A stretch of DNA of 64,000 bases, taken from sequence record OR062945.1. One strand, given 5' to 3'. This document shows, one piece after another, positions 19,301 through 62,094 of this stretch. The translations under genes and the position numbers were made by a program. Every line of letters starts with the position of its first letter. Position 1 is the first letter of the stretch. The notes under the pieces are model-generated. The model was not told where the DNA came from. It worked only from the letters and a program-made list of their open reading frames with translations, and searched no databases. The stretch comes from Escherichia phage 308Ecol101PP.

Positions 19301-19936
19301 ATGAAAACTACTCCTATTACTATCGCTATTGACGCAATCATAAAACAAGCTTCTTCTTTGGCCGCTATGGCCAAAGTAATTAGTCAAAACCCTGCTCGTT
19401 ATAATGCTATTCTAGAAACTCTTCGACGCCCAGGACTTAGTAATTATGAAAGCCGAGTAATTATTACAGGTGTTGGTAAGAATGCTAATATTGCAACTAA
19501 AGCTTCTGAGACATTTGCTTCACTTGGTATCCCGAGTATGTACTTGAACACTGGGCATTATTCTCACGGTGATGCAGGATTCATTGCGCCTAATGATGTG
19601 TTGATTCATATTAGTCGTTCTGGTAAAACTGAAGAAATGATAGGCGTGGCTAAGCATCTTAAAATGATTCGTCCGAACGTCAAACAGATTCTGTTGCATT
19701 GTAACCCGGACATTCCACAAGAATACGAAGCTCTTTTTGATTATACGTTCTGTACAGGCATCGCAGTAGAGGTTGATGAGAATTCTCTGGCTCCGACCAT
19801 GTCCACTACATTGTTGTTAGCGCTTATCGATACGTTTGCTATCAACCTTTCGTCTGAACGTGGATTTACCTCTAATGACTTCCTTAAGTTCCACCCTGGT
19901 GGTGCACTAGGTGCCATGTTACGAGGCGAACAATGA
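19301..19936 (+). CDS. SIS-domain sugar-phosphate isomerase (KdsD/GutQ-like or GmhA-like, no CBS domains)
   Basis: 211 aa; SIS-like pattern GVGKNANIA...SRSGKTEE and C-terminal HPGGALG, characteristic of arabinose-5-phosphate isomerase SIS domains. Confidence 0.7.
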   Translation: MKTTPITIAIDAIIKQASSLAAMAKVISQNPARYNAILETLRRPGLSNYESRVIITGVGKNANIATKASETFASLGIPSMYLNTGHYSHGDAGFIAPNDVLIHISRSGKTEEMIGVAKHLKMIRPNVKQILLHCNPDIPQEYEALFDYTFCTGIAVEVDENSLAPTMSTTLLLALIDTFAINLSSERGFTSNDFLKFHPGGALGAMLRGEQ

Positions 19937-20076
19937 AAGCAATAACAATAGGACTTTTACTATTGATGCTTGTCATGACTATCTACTGGAGCTTAACGGC
20001 TCCAGTAATGATTCCGACTCTTATAATCGGATGGATTATGATTGGACTACAAGCAAAGTATGAATGCTTTAACTAG
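19933..20076 (+). CDS. hypothetical small membrane protein (47 aa, not in ORF track)
   Basis: Hand-translated ATG 19933 (ATGA overlap) to TAG 20074-20076; almost entirely hydrophobic. Confidence 0.35.
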   Translation: MKAITIGLLLLMLVMTIYWSLTAPVMIPTLIIGWIMIGLQAKYECFN

Positions 20077-20117
20077 AATAGTGTACAATACTCCTACTTA
20101 CCAATGAGGACCACAAC

Positions 20118-21803
20118 ATGAAAAAAGCTGTTATTCTTGGTGCTGGACTGGCAACTCGTTTGTATCCAATAACGCATCATATTCCTAAGGTGCTTGTTAA
20201 CTATAAACAAGACACTATTCTGAGCAATTTGTATACAATTTATTCTGACCTTGGCGCAGATGAAATTATTGTAGTAGTTCATTCAAAATTTGCTGAAACT
20301 GTTCGAGCTTATTGTGAGCAAGAAGGGTTCAATGTGACTATTCGTACAGTTGATGAAGCGTATGGTTCTGCTTATGCTCTTGCTAAATTGCACAAAGATT
20401 TAGACGGCCATAATGTAATTGTTAACTGGTGTGATATTATTCCTGATTTTGGTTCGTGGTCTTGGAATGTTAACGCAATCTATGTTAAGGGTGACGAATG
20501 TCGATATAATTTCGACGGTGAAAATATCACTAATGTAGGTTCAACAGGTGGTAATGTTGTAGGAATTTATCAGTTCAAAGACTGGGAATTCTATATGGGT
20601 TCTACTGATGAGGAAATTCATGAATACTGCAAAGGACGTGATTTCGTAGAATTCCTTTACGGCAGCGCATTCAATAAATCAGAGCTTATGAATCTAATTG
20701 ATTTAGGTGATATGCCTAAACTTGAAAAAGCTCATGAAGTTCGTGAACTTAATCGTAGTTTTAATGCAGTTGAAATTGGTGAAGAAACTGTAACTAAATT
20801 CGCATTAACCGAACAGGGCCGAGCTCTTCAGAAAGATGAGATTTCATGGTATCTTAAAGTGAAATCAGATTCAGTTCCTCAGTTAGTTTCTGTTAATGAA
20901 AATAACTTTGAAATGGAACGCATTAAAGGTAAGCCGGCATTTGAATATATTAAATCCAAATCAAGTCTTGCTCGTCCACAAATTGTTGATGCAATTTTAG
21001 ATGCACTGAAATTCAGCACAGACACTTATTTTGTAAGTCCTGAAACTGTTCGTCGTGATTTCACTAAAGAATTCTATACTAAAGTTATTGATCGTTGTGA
21101 AAGTATTCAACCATTGATTGATTCATTTGGTAAAATCACACATGTGAACTACACTAAGATTGGGCGTCTGAAGCCAATGTTGAAACAAGCTTTAGAACAC
21201 CTTATTCGTTATCATAACCGTTCTCAGGGACAGTACTCTGTTATTCATGGTGACCCGAACTTCAGTAATACTATGATTACTGATAATGGTGAAGTCAAGT
21301 TTATCGACCCTCGTGGATATTTTGGTGAAACCAAGATTTATGGGCCAAAATTGTATGATGAAGCTAAAGTGCTTTACGCTGTTTCAGGTTATGATGAATT
21401 CAACGCTAATCCGACTTGGGGACAGTTTACTATTGATGAAACAACTTGTAATGTGACTATTAACATCAATCCGTTAGTTTACAAATATGGAAAGATGAGT
21501 TCGTTTAACGAGTATCATCATTTGGCAGTGGCAATTATCTGGATTGCATTAGGTGGTTATTTCAAGAATAATCCACTTAAAGCGGTAGCCGCATATTATA
21601 AAGGTATGGAACTTCTGACTAAGCAATTACGTAATATGGGCCGTGTACTTCAGGACGGCACTATTAGTTATGATGTAGCAGAACCTGTAACGGCTACTCT
21701 GATTACAAAAAATCCTGGTAAATGGGTACTAACTGATAAAGAAACTGGTGTTTCTTATCGTCCAATCGGTGGCGATATCACTCATCAATGGGAACGAATC
21801 TAA
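20118..21803 (+). CDS. bifunctional sugar-1-phosphate nucleotidyltransferase / kinase-fold protein
   Basis: N-terminus ILGAGLATRLYPIT resembles the G-x-G-T-R motif of sugar nucleotidyltransferases; C-terminal HGDPNFSNTMI...KFIDPRG resembles the catalytic loop of APH/choline-kinase-fold kinases. Confidence 0.7.
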   Translation: MKKAVILGAGLATRLYPITHHIPKVLVNYKQDTILSNLYTIYSDLGADEIIVVVHSKFAETVRAYCEQEGFNVTIRTVDEAYGSAYALAKLHKDLDGHNVIVNWCDIIPDFGSWSWNVNAIYVKGDECRYNFDGENITNVGSTGGNVVGIYQFKDWEFYMGSTDEEIHEYCKGRDFVEFLYGSAFNKSELMNLIDLGDMPKLEKAHEVRELNRSFNAVEIGEETVTKFALTEQGRALQKDEISWYLKVKSDSVPQLVSVNENNFEMERIKGKPAFEYIKSKSSLARPQIVDAILDALKFSTDTYFVSPETVRRDFTKEFYTKVIDRCESIQPLIDSFGKITHVNYTKIGRLKPMLKQALEHLIRYHNRSQGQYSVIHGDPNFSNTMITDNGEVKFIDPRGYFGETKIYGPKLYDEAKVLYAVSGYDEFNANPTWGQFTIDETTCNVTININPLVYKYGKMSSFNEYHHLAVAIIWIALGGYFKNNPLKAVAAYYKGMELLTKQLRNMGRVLQDGTISYDVAEPVTATLITKNPGKWVLTDKETGVSYRPIGGDITHQWERI

Positions 21804-22189
21804 TGCACCGTGTAAAAAACATGCTTAATCTTTGTTTTGATGTCGATGATTGTATAACAGAGTGGAATAACAATCGTGATTACGTGAACTTCAAACCAGA
21901 CGTCGAAATGGTGTCTGCCATTAATGCCCTGTATGATGCAGGGCATACCATAACGCTTTACACTGCTCGCGGTATGAAGTCAGTAGGTCCTGGTCGTATA
22001 GCAATTGACATTCTCCCAAGTCTGATTCAGAACTTGGCAAACATTGGATTGAAGTACCATAATTTGCTAACACATAAACCAGTATATGATTGGATTATCG
22101 ACGACAAAGCTATGCGTCCTGACGAATTCAAAGCTCTTATGAATAAAGGCGAATTCGAAACATTTAAATCATATAAACCGAATCTATAA
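21803..22189 (+). CDS. HAD-superfamily phosphatase
   Basis: 128 aa with HAD motif I (FDVDDCIT); TAATG overlap with upstream gene; track start 21788. Confidence 0.6.
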   Translation: MHRVKNMLNLCFDVDDCITEWNNNRDYVNFKPDVEMVSAINALYDAGHTITLYTARGMKSVGPGRIAIDILPSLIQNLANIGLKYHNLLTHKPVYDWIIDDKAMRPDEFKALMNKGEFETFKSYKPNL

Positions 22190-22235
22190 TAATTTAAGTA
22201 AGACCTGCAAAAACCATCGCATCAATTAACGTGGG

Positions 22236-23411
22236 ATGCAAAAAAAAAAAATGAATACTTTTAAAATCGGAACGAATTTTGATTTAGCTCTTCTTGATAA
22301 AATCGTAGAGCTCAATAAAACTTATCCTAATAGCTTGATAAACGAAGTATACGGCTCTACAAGAGAAATGGCTTTTGTAGCAGCCAGACCTGATTTTAGG
22401 CTTCCTGACGTTGACAAAAAGATGTTAGAAGATTACGTTAAACGTTGTAACGAATTAGGTATTTGCTTTAACTATACACTCAACACGATAAATCCTGGTT
22501 CAAAAAGAGAACTAGTTGAGTGGAAGAAGAAAGCTATTCAGGATTATGTTCAGTATCTTTGGTCAATAGGCGTATGGCGTATTACTATCGCTAACCCTGT
22601 TGTTATGGAAATTGTTCGTGAAGTCAATAAAGACATTGAGATTGAAGTTTCAACAATTCTACATGTCGATGCTGTAACTCAAATCAAATACTTGCATGAC
22701 CAATATAATATCAAAAAGGTCTGCTGTGGAATTCATAAGAACCGTTCAGTTTCTTTCCTGAAACGTGCAGCAGAGTTTTGTAATAAGAACAATATAATAT
22801 TTGAAGTTCTTGTAAATGAGTTCTGTTCTAATGCTGGTAAAGGGTACACAACACATTGTAGCTATCGTGACTCTTGCTATATTTTCCATAGCACCGATGT
22901 TACAGTAGATGATGCCAAATCCTTAAATGGATATCCAATGCAACACTGTATTAAAGCTCGTGATACAGATCCATTTAACTGGTTGAGAACTCGTTTTGTT
23001 CGTCCTCAAGATTTGAAACTTTATAATGATATTGGTATCACTCAATTTAAAGTTTCAGGACGTACAGGTAGCACCGACTACATTTTAAAAGTTCTTGAAG
23101 CTTACGCTTCTGAAAAGTTTGAAGGTAATTTGTTGGAATTGTGGAAGCCTTTAGAGACCATTTTCACTCTTGAAAATGAGACTGAGTTTTCACATACGGT
23201 AAATATTGAAACCTCTTTGTTAGACGGCTTTTTAGAAAAAAGGTGGTTCAAACATCCAGATTTCGATTGTGCTAATGAAATCTGCGGGACGACGTGTACA
23301 TATTGTGAAAGATATTATAAACGTCAGTTATCTAAAAATGGGTTATCAGAAAACTCTATATCTATTATTGATATAACTAACTCTGATGACGCTTTGAGGT
23401 ACCCAGAATGA
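22236..23411 (+). CDS. hypothetical Cys-rich protein (start at ATG 22236 or 22251)
   Basis: 391 aa with many Cys (CCGIH, EFCSNAG, HCSYRDSC, CANEICGTTCTYCE); an A12 tract lies between the two candidate ATGs. Confidence 0.5.
   Translation: MQKKKMNTFKIGTNFDLALLDKIVELNKTYPNSLINEVYGSTREMAFVAARPDFRLPDVDKKMLEDYVKRCNELGICFNYTLNTINPGSKRELVEWKKKAIQDYVQYLWSIGVWRITIANPVVMEIVREVNKDIEIEVSTILHVDAVTQIKYLHDQYNIKKVCCGIHKNRSVSFLKRAAEFCNKNNIIFEVLVNEFCSNAGKGYTTHCSYRDSCYIFHSTDVTVDDAKSLNGYPMQHCIKARDTDPFNWLRTRFVRPQDLKLYNDIGITQFKVSGRTGSTDYILKVLEAYASEKFEGNLLELWKPLETIFTLENETEFSHTVNIETSLLDGFLEKRWFKHPDFDCANEICGTTCTYCERYYKRQLSKNGLSENSISIIDITNSDDALRYPE
22240..22251 (+). repeat. homopolymeric A12 tract at the 5' end of the Cys-rich gene
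   Basis: ATGCAAAAAAAAAAAATG read directly from the sequence. Confidence 0.8.
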
Positions 23412-23689: not shown

Positions 23690-24406
23690 ATGGGAAAACA
23701 TAACACAATGAAATATATTAAAGCCGCAGATTTTCAATCCGCATTTAAAGCTGTCAATCGTGAAATTTTAGAAAATCCACAGTTCGTTACTGATTCTCGT
23801 ATTGGACGTTGTAATGAAATTGGGTCTATGACAGTAGTTGTTGATACCCCTTCATCATTCAAAATGACCGACCCACGTATTAATCGCATCTCTTATGAAT
23901 ATGCTGAAGATTTCTGGAAATTTATGATTTCTGGTGGTACTGATGCAAAAGAAGCATTTAAGGCATATCCTAACGTTGCTAAATTTATTTCTAAACCTAA
24001 ATCAGACGCTTTGCCTGCAAACTTCAACACTTTCTATGGTCCACGAATTGCGGCCCAGTTACCAGCTCTTCTCAAAGAACTTAAAGAGAAACCTAATTCA
24101 CGAAGAGTTGTGTTTCAAATTCTTGAAAGTTCAGATCAGGCTTTGCTTGATTCGGATGAAACGCTTGAATATCCATGTACTGACTCAGTGACTTATTATA
24201 TTCGTGATGGTAAGCTTTATACCCACTGTCATATGCGTTCTCAGAACTGTGCTGTTGTTATGCAGTTGGATTTTTATCTCCAAGGAAAATTACTTCATTA
24301 TATCGCTAACGAATGTGGTGTAGAAGTTGGTGATTATACTCATACCATGGTAAGTGCCCATGTGTTTGAACGTGATTTTGATTATGTTAAAGGATTCCTT
24401 GACTAA
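23690..24406 (+). CDS. 42: dCMP hydroxymethylase (thymidylate-synthase fold)
   Basis: 238 aa; TS-family pattern SRRVVFQIL ... YPCTDS (catalytic Cys) ... QLDFY (Asp 31 residues after the Cys, as in cytosine-specific members). Confidence 0.7.
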   Translation: MGKHNTMKYIKAADFQSAFKAVNREILENPQFVTDSRIGRCNEIGSMTVVVDTPSSFKMTDPRINRISYEYAEDFWKFMISGGTDAKEAFKAYPNVAKFISKPKSDALPANFNTFYGPRIAAQLPALLKELKEKPNSRRVVFQILESSDQALLDSDETLEYPCTDSVTYYIRDGKLYTHCHMRSQNCAVVMQLDFYLQGKLLHYIANECGVEVGDYTHTMVSAHVFERDFDYVKGFLD

Positions 24407-36647: not shown

Positions 36648-37229
36648 ATGACATGTCAATCTGAACTTCAAGAACGTGAATACCTAACAAATCTGATTGA
36701 TAGCAAATTCACCCGCCAAGAACAAAACATTCTCTGGGCTTGCACCGATTCTAAGGAAGACCCAGATTTCCACTATGAATTAGACCATCTTGTTCGTAAG
36801 CATATGACTTCTACAGTACCAGTAGAACTCTACCGTGGTGTAACTCCAGAAGAAGTAGAACGTCTTTCCCTTCTTTCTGTGGGATGCCATTGGTCTCCTG
36901 GACGAGTAACATCGTTCACAACTGATTTCAGTACAGCTCGTCAATTCTCCGGGAGATGGGAATATCAGACGTACACTATTCTTAGTCTCAGGAATGCTCC
37001 GTTCATTTTTGATTACTACCAAAACATGGTTAACATTGTACTCGCCGGAAAGAACCCTAAGCATGTTATGGAAGAAACTCGTATCGATGTCCTAGATATG
37101 ATTGAATCTGAGCAAGAGTACATGGTCTCAGGTATCTCTAGATTTGAGATTGTGGAAATTGAAGACTTAGAATATGACCCTTTATCTCGGTTATACAAAA
37201 TCATTCATTTGAAAATGTTGAATTTTTAG
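36648..37229 (+). CDS. modA: ADP-ribosyltransferase ModA-like
   Basis: 193 aa with ART R-S-ExE pattern (LYRGV ... SFTTDFSTA ... ESEQEYM); T4 modA and modB are adjacent as here. Confidence 0.7.
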   Translation: MTCQSELQEREYLTNLIDSKFTRQEQNILWACTDSKEDPDFHYELDHLVRKHMTSTVPVELYRGVTPEEVERLSLLSVGCHWSPGRVTSFTTDFSTARQFSGRWEYQTYTILSLRNAPFIFDYYQNMVNIVLAGKNPKHVMEETRIDVLDMIESEQEYMVSGISRFEIVEIEDLEYDPLSRLYKIIHLKMLNF

Positions 37230-37286: not shown

Positions 37287-37895
37287 ATGTTTATGCCGTA
37301 TAACGAGTGTGAAATTGAAGAAATGGTTCGTCGTGCTCAAAACCCCGAATATCAAGATGTATTGCAGTACGAAATTGATAGTCAATTCAGCGATAATGAA
37401 CAAAGCGTCCTTTGGCAGTGTATGGAAAACAAGCCAGACTGTATTCAACAGGAGTTAAGTTCAATCGTTCGTAGAAATTGGACGTCTTCTGTTCCTGAGA
37501 CAATGTATCGTGGAATCTCTAAGAAAACTATGGCCACACTCGATGATAAAGGCATTGGTAGTATTATTAAATTTGACAGAGTAATGAGCTTCAGCCCAGT
37601 GTTCGGTGTAGCGCGTAACTTTGCTTCGTATAATTTTTACGGAACATTTAATATGTTCTGCATCAAAGATGCACCATTTGCTTTCAACTTCCGTGAACAT
37701 ATGCTTAATATGATTCTGGCTGCACCATCTTGTGAGTTCAATGGAGCTTTCCCTGAAGCGACAAGACGGTCTAATGCTAGACTTATATCTGACGAATGTG
37801 AATTTATGCTCCCTATAGGGACTACACTGCGTGTAGATTCTATTATTCAAGATGGACGTTATACAATCTGGAATCTGTCTATTGTCAGTTACTGA
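37287..37895 (+). CDS. modB: ADP-ribosyltransferase ModB-like
   Basis: 202 aa with ART pattern (MYRGIS ... SFSPVFGVA ... SDECEFM); paralogous to the upstream gene. Confidence 0.7.
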   Translation: MFMPYNECEIEEMVRRAQNPEYQDVLQYEIDSQFSDNEQSVLWQCMENKPDCIQQELSSIVRRNWTSSVPETMYRGISKKTMATLDDKGIGSIIKFDRVMSFSPVFGVARNFASYNFYGTFNMFCIKDAPFAFNFREHMLNMILAAPSCEFNGAFPEATRRSNARLISDECEFMLPIGTTLRVDSIIQDGRYTIWNLSIVSY

Positions 37896-41111: not shown

Positions 41112-41141
41112 GTTTACAACCAAGGACGGTTGGAGTATAAT
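41112..41141 (+). promoter_or_regulatory. early promoter (GTTTAC, 18 nt, TATAAT)
   Basis: Hexamers read directly. Confidence 0.5.
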
Positions 41142-41171
41142 CTTTCTATCTTAACCAAACGGGAAACAATT

Positions 41172-41666
41172 ATGAATATCAATACTACGTCTACTTACAT
41201 CCTGAAAGACGAAAAACAAATCAACTGGTACGGTGCTTCAGTGCGAGCTTATGAAAAGTTTTGTGAAATTTTAGGTGCCACTCAAGGTAATAGTTTCACT
41301 ATTGTTAACTTCATCAAACAAGTTGAAGGCCCTTGGTTATTCTTAGAAATTAAAAATTCATACGGTACAATTTCTACTACTGCCCTTCCGAGCACCGACT
41401 TTGAACTCTTGATTGAAGAAGCACCTGTTAAAGATGGTCTCCACTTTGATATGGATATCGTTTGTATGTACGGTACTCTGATTAAGCCTATTGAGCCTAC
41501 TGATTTATTGTGTAAATATGTTTCAATTCGACGCCCATTCGATGGTCCAGTAAATGGATGGGTAACTGACCAGTGGATTGAAGATGGGGTTGAACTTCTG
41601 AACGTTGTTCATGCCGGTGATTTTAGTGTGGTTCCGCGTAGTGCTGTGGTTAATATCCTTAATTAA
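41172..41666 (+). CDS. dexA.1-family paralog A
   Basis: Track ORF starts at TTG inside the promoter; ATG at 41172; C-terminal module GWVTDQWIEDGVELLNVVHAGDFSVVP shared with the next two genes. Confidence 0.5.
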   Translation: MNINTTSTYILKDEKQINWYGASVRAYEKFCEILGATQGNSFTIVNFIKQVEGPWLFLEIKNSYGTISTTALPSTDFELLIEEAPVKDGLHFDMDIVCMYGTLIKPIEPTDLLCKYVSIRRPFDGPVNGWVTDQWIEDGVELLNVVHAGDFSVVPRSAVVNILN

Positions 41667-41726: not shown

Positions 41727-42257
41727 ATGATTACTATTGGTGAAATCCTTCGTGTATCTCCTGCTTCTCGTTCTAAAGCTGCAGGTCGTCTGGTTGAAGT
41801 AGCAGGACTTCGTACTAACGGCATGGGACGTGTTAAAGAAGTTAAAGTTCGAATCATCCCCAGTTTTGGCGGACAAGACGCCCAGTATGCTTACGTAAGT
41901 CCTAAATTCCTGGAAAAACATATACGAGTCCAATTTGCTTCAAGCGAAGAAGTTGCACCTGCACACTTTGCTTCTGTTGAAGAAGTTGAATCACGTGATG
42001 GATACGTATGTGAATCCACTGAGCCTAATGTACAGTTCAAATGGGCCCTTTGCAAAGGCGTTGAATTTATAACCGATAAAGAATTTGATTACATCGACGA
42101 ATACGGTTATCCAAGCAAAACTGATATTATGTGTGGCTTCATTAGTGACCAATGGGTTGAAGATGGTGAAAAGTTATACAATATCGTATTCTTAGGTGAC
42201 TTCCGAGTTGTTAAAGAATCTGAAATCACTCGCTATGTGTCTCCTCGTAAAGCTTAA
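41727..42257 (+). CDS. dexA.1-family paralog B
   Basis: 176 aa; N-terminal ASRSKAAGRLVEV and C-terminal GFISDQWVEDGEKLYNIVFLGDFRVV shared with paralog C. Confidence 0.5.
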   Translation: MITIGEILRVSPASRSKAAGRLVEVAGLRTNGMGRVKEVKVRIIPSFGGQDAQYAYVSPKFLEKHIRVQFASSEEVAPAHFASVEEVESRDGYVCESTEPNVQFKWALCKGVEFITDKEFDYIDEYGYPSKTDIMCGFISDQWVEDGEKLYNIVFLGDFRVVKESEITRYVSPRKA

Positions 42258-42266
42258 GGAATTATT

Positions 42267-42686
42267 ATGAATATTGTAAATCTCTCTACAGGTGATTACG
42301 TATATGTATCTGTTGCTTCTCGCTCTAAAGTTGCCGGGAAGTTGGTTGAAGTTCTTTCTGTGAGTGATCCGGTTTTTGGTCGTAACCAAGTTAAAGTTCG
42401 TGACGCTGATGGCAACATTGGTTACGTTAAAAGCCAATTCATTGAACCGGAAGAAAAAGCGTTCAAATGGAAACTGTGCAGGTCTGTTTTAGTTGTAAAA
42501 GACCATGAATTTACTATTGCTGCTGCAACTGACGGGTCTCCATGGTCAACGAATCAAGTTGCTGGTTTTATTTCGGACCAATGGGTAGAAGATGGTGTTA
42601 AGCTTTATAACATCGTTTTCGCTGGACAGTTCATGGTAGTTCCTGAGTTCCAAATCAAAAAATATTGTCCAGCATCTTTTGCATAA
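42267..42686 (+). CDS. dexA.1-family paralog C
   Basis: 139 aa; ASRSKVAGKLVEV ... GFISDQWVEDGVKLYNIVFAGQFMVV. Confidence 0.5.
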   Translation: MNIVNLSTGDYVYVSVASRSKVAGKLVEVLSVSDPVFGRNQVKVRDADGNIGYVKSQFIEPEEKAFKWKLCRSVLVVKDHEFTIAAATDGSPWSTNQVAGFISDQWVEDGVKLYNIVFAGQFMVVPEFQIKKYCPASFA

Positions 42687-43327: not shown

Positions 43328-43555
43328 ATGAAACGTCAAATCATTAAAAACGTAACTACTGATTCAAACATCGATGAGTTTGAAGATGTTCTGTTTAATC
43401 CTGATTTAGTTGTTGTACAGAAAAACTGGACCGAATTTTTATGCTACACCGAAGTGGTTTACGTTTACGAAAAACTCGGTGATGAAATGCCTATCTATGG
43501 TATCTTCCGTGAAATCACTGAAAACGGTACAACTTATTGGAAGGAAACTTATTAA
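43328..43555 (+). CDS. hypothetical protein
   Basis: Track ORF 43283 starts inside the promoter; ATG 43328 has AGAGGAGAATATT upstream. Confidence 0.4.
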
Positions 43556-43965
43556 TGGCTAATAAATTCCGCGTTAACTCATGGTACCAATTTATAGATA
43601 AACGTACCCAAAAAGAGTTTATTAAAAACCACACTGATAATGGGATTTATGCACGACGTCTTGGCATGGAACCATTTAAAGTATTAGATGTTGACCATCT
43701 TGGCCGTCCTACTAAAATTGTGACATCTACTGGCACGGTTGGATACGCAACAGGCGGTGATATTCTTGATGAAAACTTTATCTGGCTCTCTACTAGTGAA
43801 GCAGAGTTTTTTGATGAAGTGGGAAATCCATATCAAGCGTCCGAAGAGCAAGATTCTGGTGAACTTGACGAATTGACTGAATTTCCTGTGACGACGATTA
43901 CTATCGAAAATAACGACCAGGCATGGTCTTTGTATCAAATGTTGAAAGCACATTTTAAGGAATAA
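43555..43965 (+). CDS. hypothetical protein
   Basis: TAATG overlap; 136 aa. Confidence 0.45.
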
Positions 43966-43967
43966 TA

Positions 43968-44147
43968 ATGCCGTTATACGACTATAAATGTCAATCTGAA
44001 GATTGTGGCCATGAATATGAAAAAATTAAAAGGATTTCTGAACGAGAAAACGATGTTTGTCCTGAATGTCATCGTCTGTCTACTCGTCGGGTTTCTGCTC
44101 CTAAACATGTGAACGGTGGTTTTTACGACTTACTTAAGAAGGGTTAA
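43968..44147 (+). CDS. small zinc-ribbon protein (59 aa, not in ORF track)
   Basis: Hand-translated MPLYDYKCQSEDCGHEYE...CPECH; two CxxC pairs, FmdB-like zinc-ribbon pattern. Confidence 0.5.
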   Translation: MPLYDYKCQSEDCGHEYEKIKRISERENDVCPECHRLSTRRVSAPKHVNGGFYDLLKKG

Positions 44148-44149
44148 TT

Positions 44150-44572
44150 ATGGCTTTTAAAGGTTTTGAAGTTGGTAAGAAATATCGTATTATCAAAGGA
44201 CAGGAAGATAATTTCTTGAGAATTCTTAATACGACTGGTAAACGTCTTAACACTACTCTGCATACAGTTTTATTATCAAGAGATTTTATCGTAGAAGAGA
44301 TGATTGGTTACGGTGTTTCAATGATTGCCGCTGAAACCGATGGACCTGGACGTACAATCATTAGTATGCAAGGTGATATTCTGATTTATGGTGCAGAATT
44401 TAAATTCTTTGAAGAAGTTCCGGAACCAGATACAACTGTCGATTTCAAAAAAGGCTCTATAGAATTTGTTGATGGTTCGGTGATCGTATCAGGCGATGTG
44501 GTCATTACAGTTAAAAGTGAACAAGGGCGTTTGGCTGCAATTGATGCACTTCAGAAAATTAAATTTAAATAA
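44150..44572 (+). CDS. hypothetical protein
   Basis: 140-aa ORF followed by a strong terminator. Confidence 0.5.
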   Translation: MAFKGFEVGKKYRIIKGQEDNFLRILNTTGKRLNTTLHTVLLSRDFIVEEMIGYGVSMIAAETDGPGRTIISMQGDILIYGAEFKFFEEVPEPDTTVDFKKGSIEFVDGSVIVSGDVVITVKSEQGRLAAIDALQKIKFK

Positions 44573-44590
44573 GGGCTTCGGCCCTTTTTG
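44573..44590 (+). terminator. rho-independent terminator (UUCG tetraloop)
   Basis: GGGC-TTCG-GCCC followed by T5. Confidence 0.6.
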
Positions 44591-44635
44591 CTTTAGATTT
44601 CGGATGATAGAATACCTTCATAACGAGGAGACAAC

Positions 44636-46453
44636 ATGATTAAAAATGAAATTAAGGTATTGTCAGATGTAGAACATATTAAGAAACGTAGTGGCATGTA
44701 TATTGGTTCTTCGGCCAAAGAAGCCCACGAGCGTTTTTTGTTTGGTAAATATCAACAAGTTGAATATGTTCCTGGTCTGGTTAAATTAATCGATGAGATT
44801 ATTGACAACTCGGTTGATGAAGCTATTCGTACATCATTTAAGTTTGCAAATAAAATCGATGTGCAAATTAAAAATAATCAAGTTTCGGTGGAAGATAACG
44901 GACGTGGTATTCCTCAAGGTTTAGTTACCGACCAAACAGGTGAACAAATTCCTGGGCCTGTAGCAGCCTGGACTATTCCAAAGGCTGGTGGTAACTTTGG
45001 TGATGACTCTGAACGCAAGACTGGCGGTATGAACGGCGTCGGGAGTAGTTTAACTAATATCTTCTCTACGTTGTTTACAGGCATAACGTCAGATGGCGAA
45101 AATGAAATCACTGTTAACTGTTCAAACGGAATGGAAAACAAATCGTGGTCTTCTAAGAAATCTAAAGGTAAAGGCACTAAAGTAATCTTCACTCCTGATT
45201 TCTCTTCGTTTGAAGAACATAATTTATCTCAAATTTATTTAGATATTACTTTAGACCGACTTCAAACATTGGCAGTCGTTTATCCTGATATCAAGTTCAC
45301 ATTTAATGGTAAAAAGGTTGATGGTAATTTTAAACGATTTGCTAAACAATTTGGCGAAGATAACATCATTCAAGAAAATGATAAAGTCTCTATAGCATTC
45401 ACAACATCACCAGATGGCTTCCGTCATTTAACTTATGTGAATAACATCCATACTAAAAATGGTGGTCATCATGTTGAATGTGTAATGGATGATATCTGCG
45501 AACATCTTTTGCCGGGTATTAAAAAGAAATATAAGGGTATTGAAGTCACTAAAGCTCGTGTTAAAGAATGTCTCACAATGTTGATGTTTATTAGAGACAT
45601 GAGCAACATGCGTTTTGATTCTCAGACTAAAGAACGTTTAACGTCAACGTATGGTGATATTCGTAATCATATCCAATTGGATGCTAAGAAAATTGCTCAG
45701 GCACTTCTTAAAAACGAAGCCTTGATTATGCCTATTGTTGAAGCAGCATTAGCTCGTAAATTGGCAGCAGAAAAGGCTGCAGAAACTAAAGCAGCTAAAA
45801 AGGCAACTAAAGCTAAGGTTCATAAGCATATTAAAGCTAACCAATGTGGTAAAGATGCAGATACGACATTGTTCTTAACAGAAGGTGATTCGGCAATTGG
45901 TTATCTCATTGATGTTCGTGACCGTGAACTACACGGCGGATTCCCATTACGTGGTAAGGTGATGAATAGCTGGGGTATGTCATATGCTGATATGATGAAG
46001 AACAAAGAGCTCTTTGATATCTGTGCTATCACAGGTCTTATTCTTGGTGAAAAGGCAGAGAACACGAACTATCGTAATATTGCAATTATGACCGATGCCG
46101 ATCATGACGGTCTTGGAAGTATTTATCCGGCTTTGCTTGCTTTCTTTAGTAATTGGCCTGAATTGTTTGAACAAGGACGTATTCGCTTTGTTAAAACGCC
46201 TGTAATTATTGCACAAATTGGCAAAACTCAAAAATGGTTTTATACTGTAGCTGAGTATGAAGAAGCTAAAGATACACTTCCTAAGCATAGTATTCGATAC
46301 ATCAAGGGATTAGGCTCCCTTGAAAAGTCAGAATATCGTGAAATGATTCAGAACCCTGTGTACGACGTAGTTAAACTTCCTGAAAATTGGAAAGAACTCT
46401 TTGAAATGTTGTTGGGTGATGATTCAGAACTTCGTAAAGAATGGATGTCCTAA
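44636..46453 (+). CDS. 39: DNA topoisomerase II large subunit, GyrB-like, unsplit (covers T4 gp39 plus gp60)
   Basis: 605 aa; N-terminal GHKL ATPase and C-terminal TOPRIM (IAIMTDADHDGLGSIYP), the part T4 encodes separately as gene 60. Confidence 0.85.
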   Translation: MIKNEIKVLSDVEHIKKRSGMYIGSSAKEAHERFLFGKYQQVEYVPGLVKLIDEIIDNSVDEAIRTSFKFANKIDVQIKNNQVSVEDNGRGIPQGLVTDQTGEQIPGPVAAWTIPKAGGNFGDDSERKTGGMNGVGSSLTNIFSTLFTGITSDGENEITVNCSNGMENKSWSSKKSKGKGTKVIFTPDFSSFEEHNLSQIYLDITLDRLQTLAVVYPDIKFTFNGKKVDGNFKRFAKQFGEDNIIQENDKVSIAFTTSPDGFRHLTYVNNIHTKNGGHHVECVMDDICEHLLPGIKKKYKGIEVTKARVKECLTMLMFIRDMSNMRFDSQTKERLTSTYGDIRNHIQLDAKKIAQALLKNEALIMPIVEAALARKLAAEKAAETKAAKKATKAKVHKHIKANQCGKDADTTLFLTEGDSAIGYLIDVRDRELHGGFPLRGKVMNSWGMSYADMMKNKELFDICAITGLILGEKAENTNYRNIAIMTDADHDGLGSIYPALLAFFSNWPELFEQGRIRFVKTPVIIAQIGKTQKWFYTVAEYEEAKDTLPKHSIRYIKGLGSLEKSEYREMIQNPVYDVVKLPENWKELFEMLLGDDSELRKEWMS

Positions 46454-46495
46454 GCTCCTTCTGGAGCTTCATTTTAATTTTAATAAGGCTTAATT

Positions 46496-47596
46496 ATGAA
46501 AGTTATGTTTATCCCATCTCGCGCAGTCCCATTTAATCCTGACCGTGTACAAGGTGGTCTTGAAGCAGTACATTTAAATGTGTTGAAATATCTTGTGTCC
46601 ATCGGTGCTGATATTGATTATATCGGCTTTGATAATGACACGTTTGGTGACTGGAAAGTTACACACCATCCTGTTGGTCATCTGACTAAATTTAGTCTAG
46701 GTATGAGTTATACTATGGCTCGTAAGATTGTTGAACTAGCCGGCATCCATGAATACGATTTTGTTGTTACTATGGAACCGACTAAACTAACCGTTCAGGC
46801 AATTAAAGACGCAGGTCTCTCTAAAGTTCATAAGAATTTTATGGCAACACCATTTGAACCGGTATCTCGTGGCATTGTTCAAATTTGGGACCAGACTATT
46901 CAAATTCATAAGAATGGTGGTAAGAGTTATGCTCCTACTAAAGCCTTCCGTGAATTTGAACGCAAATATTGTTATATGACTTCAGGTCTGACTGACAAAA
47001 TTGATTATGATTATTGGCGAGCAAATCCGTTGTTTGAAGCCGAAGATTATCCGGTTATTTGTTTGAATGAGAAACCTGAAGTTCTTCCGGCGACTGATCT
47101 GATTATTAGTGCACAACGTTATGACACTAAAATGCGTCGTACTGATGTTGCTCTTGAAGCGATTAAAGCACTAGGCGAAAATGGTGTAGGATACTGTCCA
47201 AGCAAATGGGCACCACCAGCTAAATATCCTGTTATTATTGATGCTCCACACAGTGAAATCATGGAACGTCTTAAAACAGCTAAAGCGCTTATTAATACGT
47301 GTCCTGACACAGGTACGGTAGAGAATAGTTCTATTGAAGCCATCTCTAAAGGTGTCCCTGTAATCCAGTTAGTTTTTAAGGATTATCCTCATGCGACATT
47401 CGAATACGACCCAGATACTGTGCGTGTAGAAATTGATTCCTCTACTCCTAAGAAAGAAGTAGTTGCGCTTTACACAAAAGCTGTATTAGAATTCACTGAC
47501 ACATACGAAGCTCGAGTTAAACGTGCTGAAGCAGTATGGAAGAAGTATAACCGAGATGCAGTTGTTGCGATGTGGGATAAAATCTTCACAGCGTAA
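46496..47596 (+). CDS. GT-B fold glycosyltransferase (GT4-like), candidate DNA glycosyltransferase
   Basis: 366 aa; C-terminal E-x7-E-type motif VENSSIEAISKGVPVIQ typical of GT4 retaining glycosyltransferases; N-terminus MKVMFIPSRAVPFNPDRVQGG. Confidence 0.6.
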   Translation: MKVMFIPSRAVPFNPDRVQGGLEAVHLNVLKYLVSIGADIDYIGFDNDTFGDWKVTHHPVGHLTKFSLGMSYTMARKIVELAGIHEYDFVVTMEPTKLTVQAIKDAGLSKVHKNFMATPFEPVSRGIVQIWDQTIQIHKNGGKSYAPTKAFREFERKYCYMTSGLTDKIDYDYWRANPLFEAEDYPVICLNEKPEVLPATDLIISAQRYDTKMRRTDVALEAIKALGENGVGYCPSKWAPPAKYPVIIDAPHSEIMERLKTAKALINTCPDTGTVENSSIEAISKGVPVIQLVFKDYPHATFEYDPDTVRVEIDSSTPKKEVVALYTKAVLEFTDTYEARVKRAEAVWKKYNRDAVVAMWDKIFTA

Positions 47597-53403: not shown

Positions 53404-53540
53404 TTAAGAAAATCTTAGCAGGAGCCTTCGGGCTCTTGTTTTTGCTTACGGTTCTGTACTACGGTGTGATGTTTGGGCTAATCCAAGTAGTGCTTTTCAT
53501 TTCAGATGTTATAATGGTTATTCGTTCATTAATATGGTGA
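53400..53540 (+). CDS. hypothetical small membrane protein (46 aa, not in ORF track)
   Basis: Hand-translated, hydrophobic; ATGA overlap with previous. Confidence 0.35.
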   Translation: MIKKILAGAFGLLFLLTVLYYGVMFGLIQVVLFISDVIMVIRSLIW

Positions 53541-53544
53541 AAAT

Positions 53545-54870
53545 ATGCAATTGAATTCTCGTAATCTAAAAAGTATTATTGATAACGAAGCCTTAGCATA
53601 TGCGATGTACACCGTTGAAAACCGTGCAATCCCAAACATGATTGATGGATTTAAGCCGGTTCAACGTTTTGTGGTTCATCGTGCGTTAGATTTGGCTCGT
53701 GGTAATAAAGAAAAATTTCATAAACTTGCGTCAATTGCAGGCGGTGTTGCAGATTTAGGTTATCACCATGGTGAATCTTCTGCACAAGATGCAGGTGCAT
53801 TGATGGCTAACACATGGAACAACAACTATCCGTTGTTAGATGGCCAAGGCAACTTTGGTTCTAGAACAGTCCAAAAAGCTGCAGCATCTCGTTATATTTT
53901 TGCTCGTGTAAGTAAAAATTTCTATAACGTATATAAAGATACTGAATATGCTCCAGCTCATGAAGATAAAGAACACATTCCACCAAAATTCTATCTTCCT
54001 ATTATTCCGACAGTTCTTTTGAATGGTGTCTCTGGTATTGCAACCGGTTACGCAACAAATATTCTGCCTCATAGTTTTAAATCAGTCAAAAAGGCTGTAT
54101 TACAAGCTCTTCAAGGTAAAAATGTCACTAAGCCAAAAGTTGAATTCCCGGAATTCCGTGGTGAAGTACATGAAGTTGATGGGCGTTATGAGATTCACGG
54201 AACATATAAGTTCACATCTCGCACTCAAATGCAGATAACTGAAATCCCGTATAAATTCGACCGTGAAACGTATGTGAGTAAGGTTCTTGACCCGTTGGAA
54301 GACAAAGGTCTAATCTCATGGGAAGATGATTGCGGTGAACACGGCTTTGGATTTAAGGTGAAGTTCCGTAAAGAGTACTCGCTTCCTGATGATGAAGAGC
54401 TACGTCATGAAAAAATCATGAAAGATTTTAGTCTCATCGAACGTCGTTCACAAAACATCACAGTGATTAATGAAAAGGGTAAATTAGCGGTCTATGATAA
54501 CGTAGTAGACTTAATCAAAGATTTTGTTGAAGTCCGTAAGACTTACGTTCAGAAACGTATTGACAACAAAATCCTTGAATCTGAAAAAGCATTTAAACTT
54601 GCTTTTGCTAAGGCGCACTTCATCAAAAAAGTTATCAACGGTGAAATTGTGATTCAAGGCAAGACTCGTAAAGCTTTGACTGAAGAGCTAGCACAAATCG
54701 AAATGTATAAAGAACATGTCGATAAACTGGTAGGTCTTAACATCTTCCATATCACTTCCGATGAAGCACGTAAATTAGCAGAAGAAGCTAAAGCTAAGAA
54801 AGAAGAAAATGAGTATTGGAAGTCTACTGATGTTGTGACAGAGTACACTAAAGACTTGGAGGCACTTTGA
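53545..54870 (+). CDS. 52: DNA topoisomerase II medium subunit gp52 (GyrA-like)
   Basis: 441 aa (T4 gp52 about 442 aa), GyrA-like N-terminal region. Confidence 0.85.
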   Translation: MQLNSRNLKSIIDNEALAYAMYTVENRAIPNMIDGFKPVQRFVVHRALDLARGNKEKFHKLASIAGGVADLGYHHGESSAQDAGALMANTWNNNYPLLDGQGNFGSRTVQKAAASRYIFARVSKNFYNVYKDTEYAPAHEDKEHIPPKFYLPIIPTVLLNGVSGIATGYATNILPHSFKSVKKAVLQALQGKNVTKPKVEFPEFRGEVHEVDGRYEIHGTYKFTSRTQMQITEIPYKFDRETYVSKVLDPLEDKGLISWEDDCGEHGFGFKVKFRKEYSLPDDEELRHEKIMKDFSLIERRSQNITVINEKGKLAVYDNVVDLIKDFVEVRKTYVQKRIDNKILESEKAFKLAFAKAHFIKKVINGEIVIQGKTRKALTEELAQIEMYKEHVDKLVGLNIFHITSDEARKLAEEAKAKKEENEYWKSTDVVTEYTKDLEAL

Positions 54871-59045: not shown

Positions 59046-59077
59046 ATTATAAAAAAGGGACAGAAGTCCCTTCTCCT
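59046..59077 (-). promoter_or_regulatory. structured translation-initiation region of gene 38 (hairpin between Shine-Dalgarno and AUG)
   Basis: Minus strand reads AAGGAGAA-GGGAC-TTCT-GTCCC-TTTTTTATAAT-ATG; the hairpin sits between the Shine-Dalgarno sequence and the start codon. Confidence 0.5.
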
Positions 59078-62000
59078 TATGCTAAACGAACGATATAGTT
59101 AAAAGCAACGTTTTTAACTGTGTTTTCTGTATTTCCTGTGGCATTTACAGTTATTGTATGACCATGAGAACCAATCGCTACCGAATGAGAGTGGGCACCA
59201 ATACCTACAGTATGTGTATGGGCACCAATACCAACGGTGTGGGCATGGTTACCTGTGGTACTTGTAGTTCCTGACCAACTATGAGTGTGGGCACCATCTG
59301 AAGAAGTTTTGGCCATATTCGACGCTGCAGTAGCACCGCTCACGGATCCAGTGATTTTAGCGTTGCCGTTTGGTCCCGCACTATTGTATCCATCATAGAA
59401 TATGCTAGTGGGTACGCCGCCTTGTATCTGAGGGCCTGAACGCGCGTGTTGGTGCGCACCAGCGGAACCAGTATTACCACTCACTGTATGGTTATGATTA
59501 CCAGTGGTATTGCTGGTCTTAGTACCATAGTCGAAGCTACTTGTCGTCTTAGTACCATAATCAAAACTTGACGTGGTCTTAGTACCCAAATCTGTGCTTG
59601 ATGCACTTGCACTATGGCTATGTGACTTAACACCGTCTGCTTCTGTACTTAGTACAGCACGCCCGGATGGTTTACCCTTGATAGTTTGACCACGCATATC
59701 AGGCAGAGCGCCGGAAGGATACACCGCAGCTAACTTAGGATACAAGCCAGCATCAAATGTTTGACCTTCCATTATGGCATAACCTTCAGGAGGTGTATCA
59801 GTAGGCCAAGGAATCGGAGCACCAATTGGATAACTTGAGACAATATCTGTCTTAAGGTTATTTATTGTGGTATTCAAGTTAGCAAAATTACCAGAACCAC
59901 CAGTAATATTACCATCAGTACCGAATTGAGCATTACCAACTTTTAATGGTTTAGTAATATCGACAGAATCAGAGTTTAATGCAATACCATGTGAATATGT
60001 GTAGCTGTGCATACGAACGACGTTGCCGCCATCGCCAATACCTAAATACCATTTCGGAACATCTGCTTTACGTCCTTGAATGAAGTTAGAAGACTCTTGT
60101 GTTGGAGCATTTATTCTAATAGCATCTGATGCCATATTTACTGTTATGCGTTGACCAGCCGTAGTACCAGTTGTATCTACTTTAAATCTACCACCGCCGA
60201 TATCTACTACATGGTCCATAGAAACTTGGCCATCGCCTAAATTGATATAAAACGGGCGAAGATTACTTATTCCACCACTTTCACCGGCATCTTTAGGAGT
60301 CGGAATAATGTACAGACTTGTTTCTGAACGTCGGAAAATAGCGCCGTATTCAGCGTTCCAAATTCTTAATGCGTCGGCTGTTCCACCGAATTTAGCTTGG
60401 CCGTTTACAGATAATCCATTATTTGCAACTAAACTTGATTCGCTAACAATAGAACCGGCCGATATAATACCACCACCCACACGTAAAGCGCCGGAAATTC
60501 TGAATTGAAGAGCACCGACAGTTTCAGAACCCGTCGGTGCTAAACGTTGAGAATAAAAATGATAGCCCTGGCCATCATACAATTCAAATACGGTTTCACG
60601 ATTACCGGCGGTGGAGTCGAATGCATTACCCCAGGCTTTCATAGTCAGATAACTTTTATTTTGTCCTGAACGGGTCCCGGCGTTCCACTGGATAGTTCTC
60701 GAGCCATCAACTTTGCTAGGGGCGCCAAATTTAAGGCCTTCGGTATTATTAGAACTATTTAAAAATAATTCGTTGTCTAATTTAACAGGTTGGATAGAAG
60801 AAATAGTGCCGTCAGCATAAAACTGTACATTATTAGAGCCAGTTACCAATTTCAAAATACCCGGATTAACTTCCATGCCTTCTTGAGTATTAATATTAGT
60901 TTTGCCTTTACCACGGAAATAGTGGTTCATTTTTCCGCCAGAATTATATCCAATATGGGTTTGACCATCTCCAGCAGAGTTTTCATCAGCCTGAGTTTGG
61001 ACTGATAAAAGAGCGGCGTTGGTTCCAGGCATAATCCATGTGGTTCCTTGGTCTTCTGAACGTCCAAATAAACCTTTGCGAGTACTACGGAAACTGTCAG
61101 GAGTAATAGAAGCAACAGAATTCCCTGAACCAACTAAATCATAAACACCGGTTTTTTTGTATGATAGCCCCGTCCCGTTATCGCCTAGAGCTAAATAAAC
61201 ACCGAATCCTAAAGCGGCACCATTACCATAGTCGCTTGACGGGTATCCTGCAGTCACAGTACCGATGGCCAGGCTATTGCGGATAATCATTCTGCCGTCA
61301 TTACGAATACCATATAATTTAAATGATGGTGTATTACCAGACCACCAAGAAACTTCATCAGCCTGGCCTGTTTGTGCAGTAACAATTTCATGATACATTG
61401 TACTACCGGATTTAGCTCGCACTTTACGAAGATAGTTTACACCATTCGTTTCGCCGGTGCCTGGATATACATAATTAACTAATGAATCTGTATCATATAC
61501 ACCAAAGGCTTTGCCACCGTGGATAACTGTATCAGCTGCAATGCGTTTAGTTACTAACGAATCTGATGCTAAAATACGGTTGGCTTGAAATTCACCGCCG
61601 TTTATAGAACGGAAATAGAATTCGCTATTAACGGTGCTTCCTGTTCCTTGTCTAACTCTAAGACGTATTTCACCATCAGTTGTAGTTTGAGGACGAGCAT
61701 ATATAACGCCTCGTTCAGTGCCATCAGCATTTTCAAACCATAAATGGGCATTTGATGTTTCACCAGGTGAAGCTCTTGTATAAAACGAACCTTGCAATGC
61801 TCTAAAAGTTTGAGCTGAAATACTAGTACCAGCGGTAATCTGGCCACTTGTGGAAAAATTTCCAAAATTGTTTATTGGCCCATTAACACGTAAAGTTCCA
61901 TTAATAGTAACGTTGCCGTCAACCTGGCCACCTTTAGCAAAGCCTAGGCTAATAATATTACCGAGGTCATCTTTAGTAAAAAGAGTTCGATCTTTTAAGT

Positions 62001-62094
62001 TTATCGCTAATTCGCCTTCGGCTAATTGTGCTGCAGTAGGATTAACTCCTGCCACTTTGCTTCTTTTAAATTGTATCTGTTTTAATGTAGCCAT
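59077..62094 (-). CDS. 37: long tail fibre distal subunit gp37 (receptor-binding)
   Basis: 1005 aa; C-terminal His-x-His repeats ([24 protein letters not shown]) and Gly/Ser/Thr-rich repeats. Confidence 0.85.
59150..59245 (-). repeat. tandem DNA repeats encoding the HxH motifs of the gp37 tip
   Basis: Repeated GGGCACCAATACC...GTGTG units readable in the plus-strand sequence. Confidence 0.5.
59515..59605 (-). repeat. three imperfect 30-33-nt tandem repeats inside gene 37
   Basis: GTCTTAGTACCATA... repeated three times, encoding [11 protein letters not shown] three times. Confidence 0.6.

Follow-up and report, generated by a model that had tools for sequence, protein, structure and literature searches.

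Topoisomerase II of the phages T2 and T6 is a two-subunit enzyme, whereas that of T4 consists of three subunits. Cryo-EM structures of the two-subunit T-even enzyme are available (8ylu and others; PMC11461880), and ATP-dependent strand passage and relaxation have been shown biochemically for the enzymes of T4 and T6 (PMC11461880). MobA elements are mobile cassettes with a length of 1097-1106 nt (10.1101/2022.08.31.505936). At least ten independent MobA insertions, mostly recent, have been inferred, and each invaded clade has 96-99% identical uninvaded "parental" genomes (10.1101/2022.08.31.505936). Homing into T2 is mentioned in the same work with reference to Bonocora et al. (2011). In T4 and some other phages, the cassette interrupts the TOPRIM-coding region in its middle. 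There it extends gp39 by a C-terminal tail and gp60 by an N-terminal head, and 50 nt remain untranslated after the glycine of the DxD motif.

Here, we analyzed a 64-kb window, that is, the whole stretch of 64,000 nucleotides from Escherichia phage 308Ecol101PP (OR062945.1). Judged by its sequence, the source phage is a Mosigvirus, an RB69-like T-even phage. The unsplit gene 39 described below is already known from public annotation (RB69, JS09) and from the literature. It carries little weight as a discovery, as "60plus39" is labelled in GenBank, the structures of the T2/T6 enzyme have been solved, and the mobility of the cassette into intact alleles has been shown. Its use is that of a clean "empty site" reference, which fixes the insertion points of T4 to the codon (46056/46066 and 46111/46112).

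Gene 39 and its product

Gene 39 ("39 plus 60"; 44636-46453, +) was assigned by ORF, Pfam, PHROG, and homology evidence to the unsplit large (ATPase plus TOPRIM) subunit of a phage type IIA DNA topoisomerase. According to the ORF listing of the window, it encodes 605 aa, starts with ATG, and contains no internal stop codon. The claim of an earlier note on this DNA that the gene is single and uninterrupted, and homologous to T4 genes 39 and 60, was borne out. The product matches PHROG 543 (5.8e-287). A Shine-Dalgarno sequence, GAGGAG (44625-44630, +), was read from the sequence 5 nt before the ATG. A pattern scan and inspection of the sequence revealed two terminator-like hairpins. One is GC-rich, has a UUCG loop, is followed by a T run, and lies between the ORF005c homolog and gene 39 (44571-44586, +). 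The other overlaps the gene 39 stop codon and precedes a T-rich run (46452-46469, +); a terminator is annotated at the equivalent place in the record of phage PhAPEC2.

Two domains of the product were recognized by Pfam. A GHKL ATPase domain extends over aa 47-189 (44774-45202, +; HATPase_c, 3.5e-11, 43.9 bits at a cut-off of 26.4), and a transducer (GyrB second) domain over aa 249-385 (45380-45790, +; DNA_gyraseB, 2.7e-14, 53.4 bits at a cut-off of 27). Motif searches located the N-box EIIDNSVDE (44795-44821, +), the glycine-rich ATP lid GGMNGVGSS (45023-45049, +), and the QTK lysine loop SQTKERL at aa 329-335 (45620-45640, +). Combined with the T4 alignment, they also revealed the catalytic-glutamate motif of TOPRIM, EGDSA, at aa 416-420 (45881-45895, +) and its metal-binding DxD motif, TDADHDG, at aa 486-492 (46091-46111, +). 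The peptide IAIMTDADHDGLGS corresponds to aa 482-495 of the product. Every motif checked, i.e., N-box, glycine-rich lid, QTK, EGDSA, and DxD, was intact. The TOPRIM_C model gave 27.3 bits at aa 520-604, marginally below its cut-off of 29, and the Pfam Toprim model was not among the matches listed for the gene 39 product. The TOPRIM call therefore rests on EGDSA, DxD, and the alignment with T6 gp39. A single polypeptide carries the GHKL ATPase, the transducer, and TOPRIM, followed by the C-terminal tail, as expected for a complete GyrB/ParE-like subunit. That the product is the GyrB/ParE-like ATPase/TOPRIM subunit of a type IIA topoisomerase belongs to an overall explanation that we consider, taken as a whole, very probably correct.

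The predicted partner of gp39 is encoded by gene 52 (53545-54870, +). Pfam DNA_topoisoIV (4.2e-78, 263.6 bits, aa 27-429) and synteny identify its 441-aa product as a GyrA/ParC-like DNA breakage-reunion subunit, and the syntenic gene 52 of Mosigvirus VIPECOMC06 is annotated as "DNA topoisomerase II". By homology, gp39 and gp52 should form a two-subunit A2B2 enzyme like that of T2 and T6, not the three-subunit form of T4. Given the 82% identity to T6 gp39, the enzyme of 308Ecol101PP would be expected to catalyze ATP-dependent strand passage and relaxation. We infer both the enzymatic activity and the subunit stoichiometry from the sequence.

At the nucleotide level, gene 39 is 99.1% identical to its counterpart in phage JS09, and about 140 further records show 95-99% identity. 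At the protein level, identity amounts to 100% with ATK48, 96% with RB69, and 82% with T6. In the records of RB69 and JS09, the gene is named "60plus39" or "gp60plus39 large subunit topoisomerase II", with mention of the insertion that splits it in T4. The RB69 protein (NP_861694) has 606 aa compared with 605 here, the differences being point substitutions and one codon. The Mosigvirus orthologs JS09 gp176 and those of ATK48, PhAPEC2, and APCEc01 agree with the present locus in both gene and position. RB69 gene 39 likewise lies between the ORF005c and ORF003c homologs, upstream of rIIA.1 and rIIA, and the RB69 gene order cef, goF, 39.2, ORF005c, 39, ORF003c, rIIA.1, rIIA, rIIB is kept here. 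T4 shares these flanking genes, having 39.2, goF, and cef on the upstream side of the locus and rIIA.1 and rIIA on the downstream side.

T4 mutants in the topoisomerase genes 39, 52, and 60 are viable, with delayed DNA synthesis. Loss of function is therefore conceivable in principle, and gene 39 might be an inactive relic in a phage that relies on the topoisomerase of its host. The checked motifs are intact, however, and so is gene 52. A ribosome-binding site precedes the gene and hairpins bracket it, another isolate has a 100% identical protein, and 116 records contain a gene 39 protein with at least 99% aa identity. We consider a relic extremely improbable and regard gene 39 as coding for a presumably functional subunit.

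Insertion points of T4 and search for cassette parts

For comparison with the split gene, T4 gp39 and gp60 were translated from NC_000866, with the gp60 exons joined over the annotated 50-nt gap, and aligned by BLASTP. Residues 1-474 of the 308Ecol101PP protein correspond to T4 gp39 aa 1-473, with 375 of 474 positions identical (79%, E = 0). Residues 473-605 correspond to T4 gp60 aa 27-159, with 116 of 133 positions identical (87%, E = 2e-84). The proteins are homologous across all functional domains. The earlier note had named this alignment as the test of its reading, and the C-terminal part did prove homologous to gp60. Its equation of the C-terminal TOPRIM region with T4 gene 60 was correct for the DxD motif and the tail, but not for the EGDSA half, which resides in T4 gp39. 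The T4 split cuts through the middle of TOPRIM, leaving EGDSA in gp39 and the DxD motif plus the C-terminal tail in gp60. The last 43 aa of T4 gp39 (474-516) and the first 26-30 aa of gp60 are without counterpart in the 605-aa ORF. Together, T4 gp39 and gp60 comprise 676 aa. The excess of 71 aa over the ORF agrees with the TOPRIM insertion of about 70 aa in the T4 cryo-EM structure (PMC11461880).

The site equivalent to the large T4 insertion was located by blastn offsets and hand alignment at the codons of Glu475-Asn476-Thr477 (46057-46065, +). DNA homology to T4 gene 39 extends up to 46056, and that to T4 gene 60 sets in at 46066. The extra DNA of T4 at this site amounts to about 1003 nt and comprises the gp39 tail, mobA, 60.1, and the gp60 head. 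The alignment further identified GGT-CTT (Gly492-Leu493; 46109-46114, +) as the uninterrupted equivalent of the take-off/resume point of T4 gene 60. T4 has exactly 50 extra nt between 46111 and 46112, which shifts the offset from +1000 to +1050. At this point, 308Ecol101PP reads GAC GGT / CTT GGA AGT (Asp-Gly / Leu-Gly-Ser), compared with GAT GGA (50 nt) TTA GGT TCT in T4. Take-off and landing codons of T4 are both GGA, whereas GGT is directly followed by CTT in 308Ecol101PP. In T4 gp60, TDADHDG immediately precedes the take-off codon. By this comparison, the T4 split falls within the metal-binding site of TOPRIM.

In the MobA-element literature, the cassette boundaries are placed at aa 466-473 and aa 490-491 (RB14 numbering). 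Over both boundaries, the codons of 308Ecol101PP gene 39 continue without a break (46028-46165) and are colinear with those of T6 and RB69. By its sequence, the gene is classed as an uninvaded ("parental") Topo2L allele. T6 was used to represent the unsplit genes of Tequatrovirus, and the state of T2 was taken from the literature (PMC11461880; 10.1101/2022.08.31.505936). T6 gp39 is unsplit, has 605 aa, and differs from the 308Ecol101PP protein by a single one-residue gap at 82% identity. Both share the junction pattern GEKAEN.NY.NIAIMTDADHDGLGS. T6 belongs to Tequatrovirus and 308Ecol101PP to Mosigvirus, and the two diverge by about 21% over the 138-nt stretch that surrounds the MobA target, mostly at synonymous positions. 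Against the solved T6 gp39 (8ylu_C), the protein aligns in one stretch (query 1-605, chain 1-604); against the artificial T4 gp39-gp60 fusion (8yo3_C), it aligns in two.

A single ORF could also arise by secondary fusion of the split halves, with a cassette-derived linker inside the ORF, as in a Campylobacter phage clade. Such fused forms do exist (clade 8; 10.1101/2022.08.31.505936). The 605-aa ORF, however, has the length of parental T6 gp39, from which it is separated by one single-residue gap, while the T4 total is 71 aa longer. Neither the 43-aa gp39 tail nor the 30-aa gp60 head has a match in the window. A re-fused gene with a retained linker was rejected because of the ORF length and the absence of the tails, and secondary fusion has, in our view, a negligible probability compared with an allele that was never invaded.

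The window was then searched for parts of the cassette. With the intact MobA of phage e11/2 (272 aa) as the query, tblastn found no MobA homolog in the 64-kb window (best E 0.75). The 43-aa C-terminal tail of T4 gp39 and the 30-aa N-terminal head of gp60 gave only chance matches in tblastn of the same window (best E 0.76 and 1.1, respectively). The 50-nt gap sequence of T4 likewise gave only chance matches of at most 12 nt in the window (best E 0.12). In T4, mobA is a pseudogene; like 60.1 and the 50-nt coding gap, it is absent from the 308Ecol101PP window. These results support the absence of a T4-type insertion from both the gene 39 locus and the 64-kb window, in agreement with the previous claim that the selfish insertion is missing. 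The MobA elements have been reported exclusively inside the gene for the topoisomerase large subunit (10.1101/2022.08.31.505936), and it therefore matters little that the statement on absence is restricted to 64 kb.

The best match to the gap sequence is an exact one of 12 nt (AGCCTTCGGGCT) to the part with the take-off stem-loop, located at 53423-53434 (+), some 110 nt ahead of gene 52. The matching segment is a generic UUCG-tetraloop hairpin, and the match is no better than chance.

The window is colinear with Mosigvirus VIPECOMC06, save for some short indels and the variable part of the distal tail-fibre gene. The ORFs in the stretches that differ from VIPECOMC06 encode a member of a PHROG of unknown function, a small head protein (DUF7422), an ADP-ribosyltransferase paralog, and MotB-like proteins. 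No homing endonuclease was found among them.

Origin of the unsplit form

A gp39 homolog (E <= 1e-20) is present in 1940 phage records, compared with 62 records that have the T4-type split gp39 tail. The unsplit form is the majority state among phage records. A 500-nt probe spanning both insertion points retrieved 154 records with at least 95% identity, and every sampled one matched as a single piece with 99-100% coverage.

Cellular homologs present the same picture. In ParE/GyrB and in the N-terminal half of eukaryotic Topo II, the order of GHKL ATPase, transducer, and TOPRIM is the same as here, and all three reside on one polypeptide. ParE (4juo_C) aligns in a single stretch over the junction (query 7-604, 2.2e-47), and so do human TOP2A (6zy5_B, 9.3e-62) and yeast Topo II. 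The alignment with E. coli GyrB ends at query residue 535, whereas that with ParE reaches 604. According to the E-values, bacterial ParE/GyrB and eukaryotic Topo II are distant in sequence from 308Ecol101PP gp39.

It had been proposed that the continuous gene represents the ancestral state. This is well supported, because the gene is continuous in ParE and eukaryotic Topo II as cellular outgroups, the split tail occurs in only 62 records compared with 1940 that have a homolog, and the literature agrees (10.1101/2022.08.31.505936; PMC11461880). We infer that the unsplit form was inherited and not restored. In this lineage, the gene would have remained unsplit without ever being invaded by the cassette of MobA homing endonuclease and bypass element.

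The unsplit form would instead be derived if an ancestor had lost the MobA/bypass cassette cleanly, for instance by gene conversion in a mixed infection. Progressive loss of element parts has been described in several clades, and the deletion rate may balance the spread (10.1101/2022.08.31.505936). Moreover, a conversion of this kind, if clean and templated by an intact allele, would be invisible in the sequence. In the documented losses, however, either the gene stays split with its tails or its halves are fused again and the tails persist (10.1101/2022.08.31.505936), and no trace of the cassette tails is present here. The stretch by which the cassette replaces parental sequence is 2-7 aa shorter than the latter (10.1101/2022.08.31.505936). 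308Ecol101PP has kept the parental residues Ala474-Glu-Asn-Thr477, as has uninvaded T6, whereas T4 gp60 has no matching residues there. Furthermore, the gene is intact in every member sampled from the 154 close relatives. We therefore regard restoration as very unlikely and retain inheritance of the uninvaded gene as the explanation. The locus adds one more uninvaded lineage and fits the notion of an old, conserved gene that the cassette has parasitized recently and sporadically.

The collection contained no cassette-bearing Mosigvirus among the sampled members of the roughly 154 close relatives, all of which are unsplit, whereas the cassette has spread repeatedly in phages of Tequatrovirus, Proteus, Acinetobacter, Aeromonas, and Salmonella. 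Tentatively, the Mosigvirus-type clade might be refractory to MobA homing, although we consider this rather unlikely. Genetic isolation has been attributed to arabinosyl-hmC DNA (PMC6024577). Such DNA, together with an inability to recombine with T4-type phages (PMC6024577), is one possible cause of refractoriness. Another possible cause is the nucleotide divergence of ~21% at the target site, which may prevent nicking by MobA. Alternatively, Mosigvirus may be cassette-free through lack of exposure. If the clade were indeed refractory, the unsplit gene would point to a natural obstacle to the spread of a homing element, beyond mere non-exposure.

Neighbouring loci

Directly downstream of gene 39 lies an ORF of 366 aa (46496-47596, +), a homolog of RB69 ORF003c that matches PHROG 8302 end to end and has no Pfam match. 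T4 and T6 lack an ORF003c homolog at this position. ORF003c has been proposed to be a GT-B-fold arabinosyltransferase that makes arabinosyl-hmC DNA (PMC6024577). A block of genes at 19301-23411 (+) is located between the DNA polymerase gene (16549-19260) and the "thymidylate synthase" gene (about 23690-24406). In a syntenic relative, this block is annotated as arabinose 5-phosphate isomerase, a 561-aa hypothetical protein, phosphoheptose isomerase, and a "peptidase".

Upstream of gene 39, the small zinc-ribbon gene 39.2 (43968-44147, +; Pfam Zn_ribbon_8) is flanked by the goF homolog (43537-43965, +) and the ORF005c homolog (44150-44572, +). The latter matches PHROG 622, to which the goF homolog of a relative is also assigned in its annotation. 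The two genes look like diverged paralogs on either side of 39.2.

Three tandem MotB-like ORFs are found at 41130-41666, 41727-42257, and 42267-42686 (all +). The first two match MotB families in PHROGs and Pfam, and the third was placed by synteny with annotated MotB-like genes. The segment 41142-41671 is without counterpart in VIPECOMC06; thus, the copy number of MotB-like genes varies between close relatives. The ORF at 36648-37229 (+) matches the PHROG of the RNA polymerase ADP-ribosylase, and the ORF at 37287-37895 (+) sits where a relative has such an enzyme annotated. The two may be adjacent Mod-like paralogs. The segment 36692-37194 is not shared with VIPECOMC06. Finally, the distal long-tail-fibre gene (59077-62094, -) encodes 1005 aa. 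The segment for its middle and C-terminal portions (59959-61905) is unalignable or aligns in fragments in comparison with an otherwise 96-98% identical relative, as expected for a host-range variable region.
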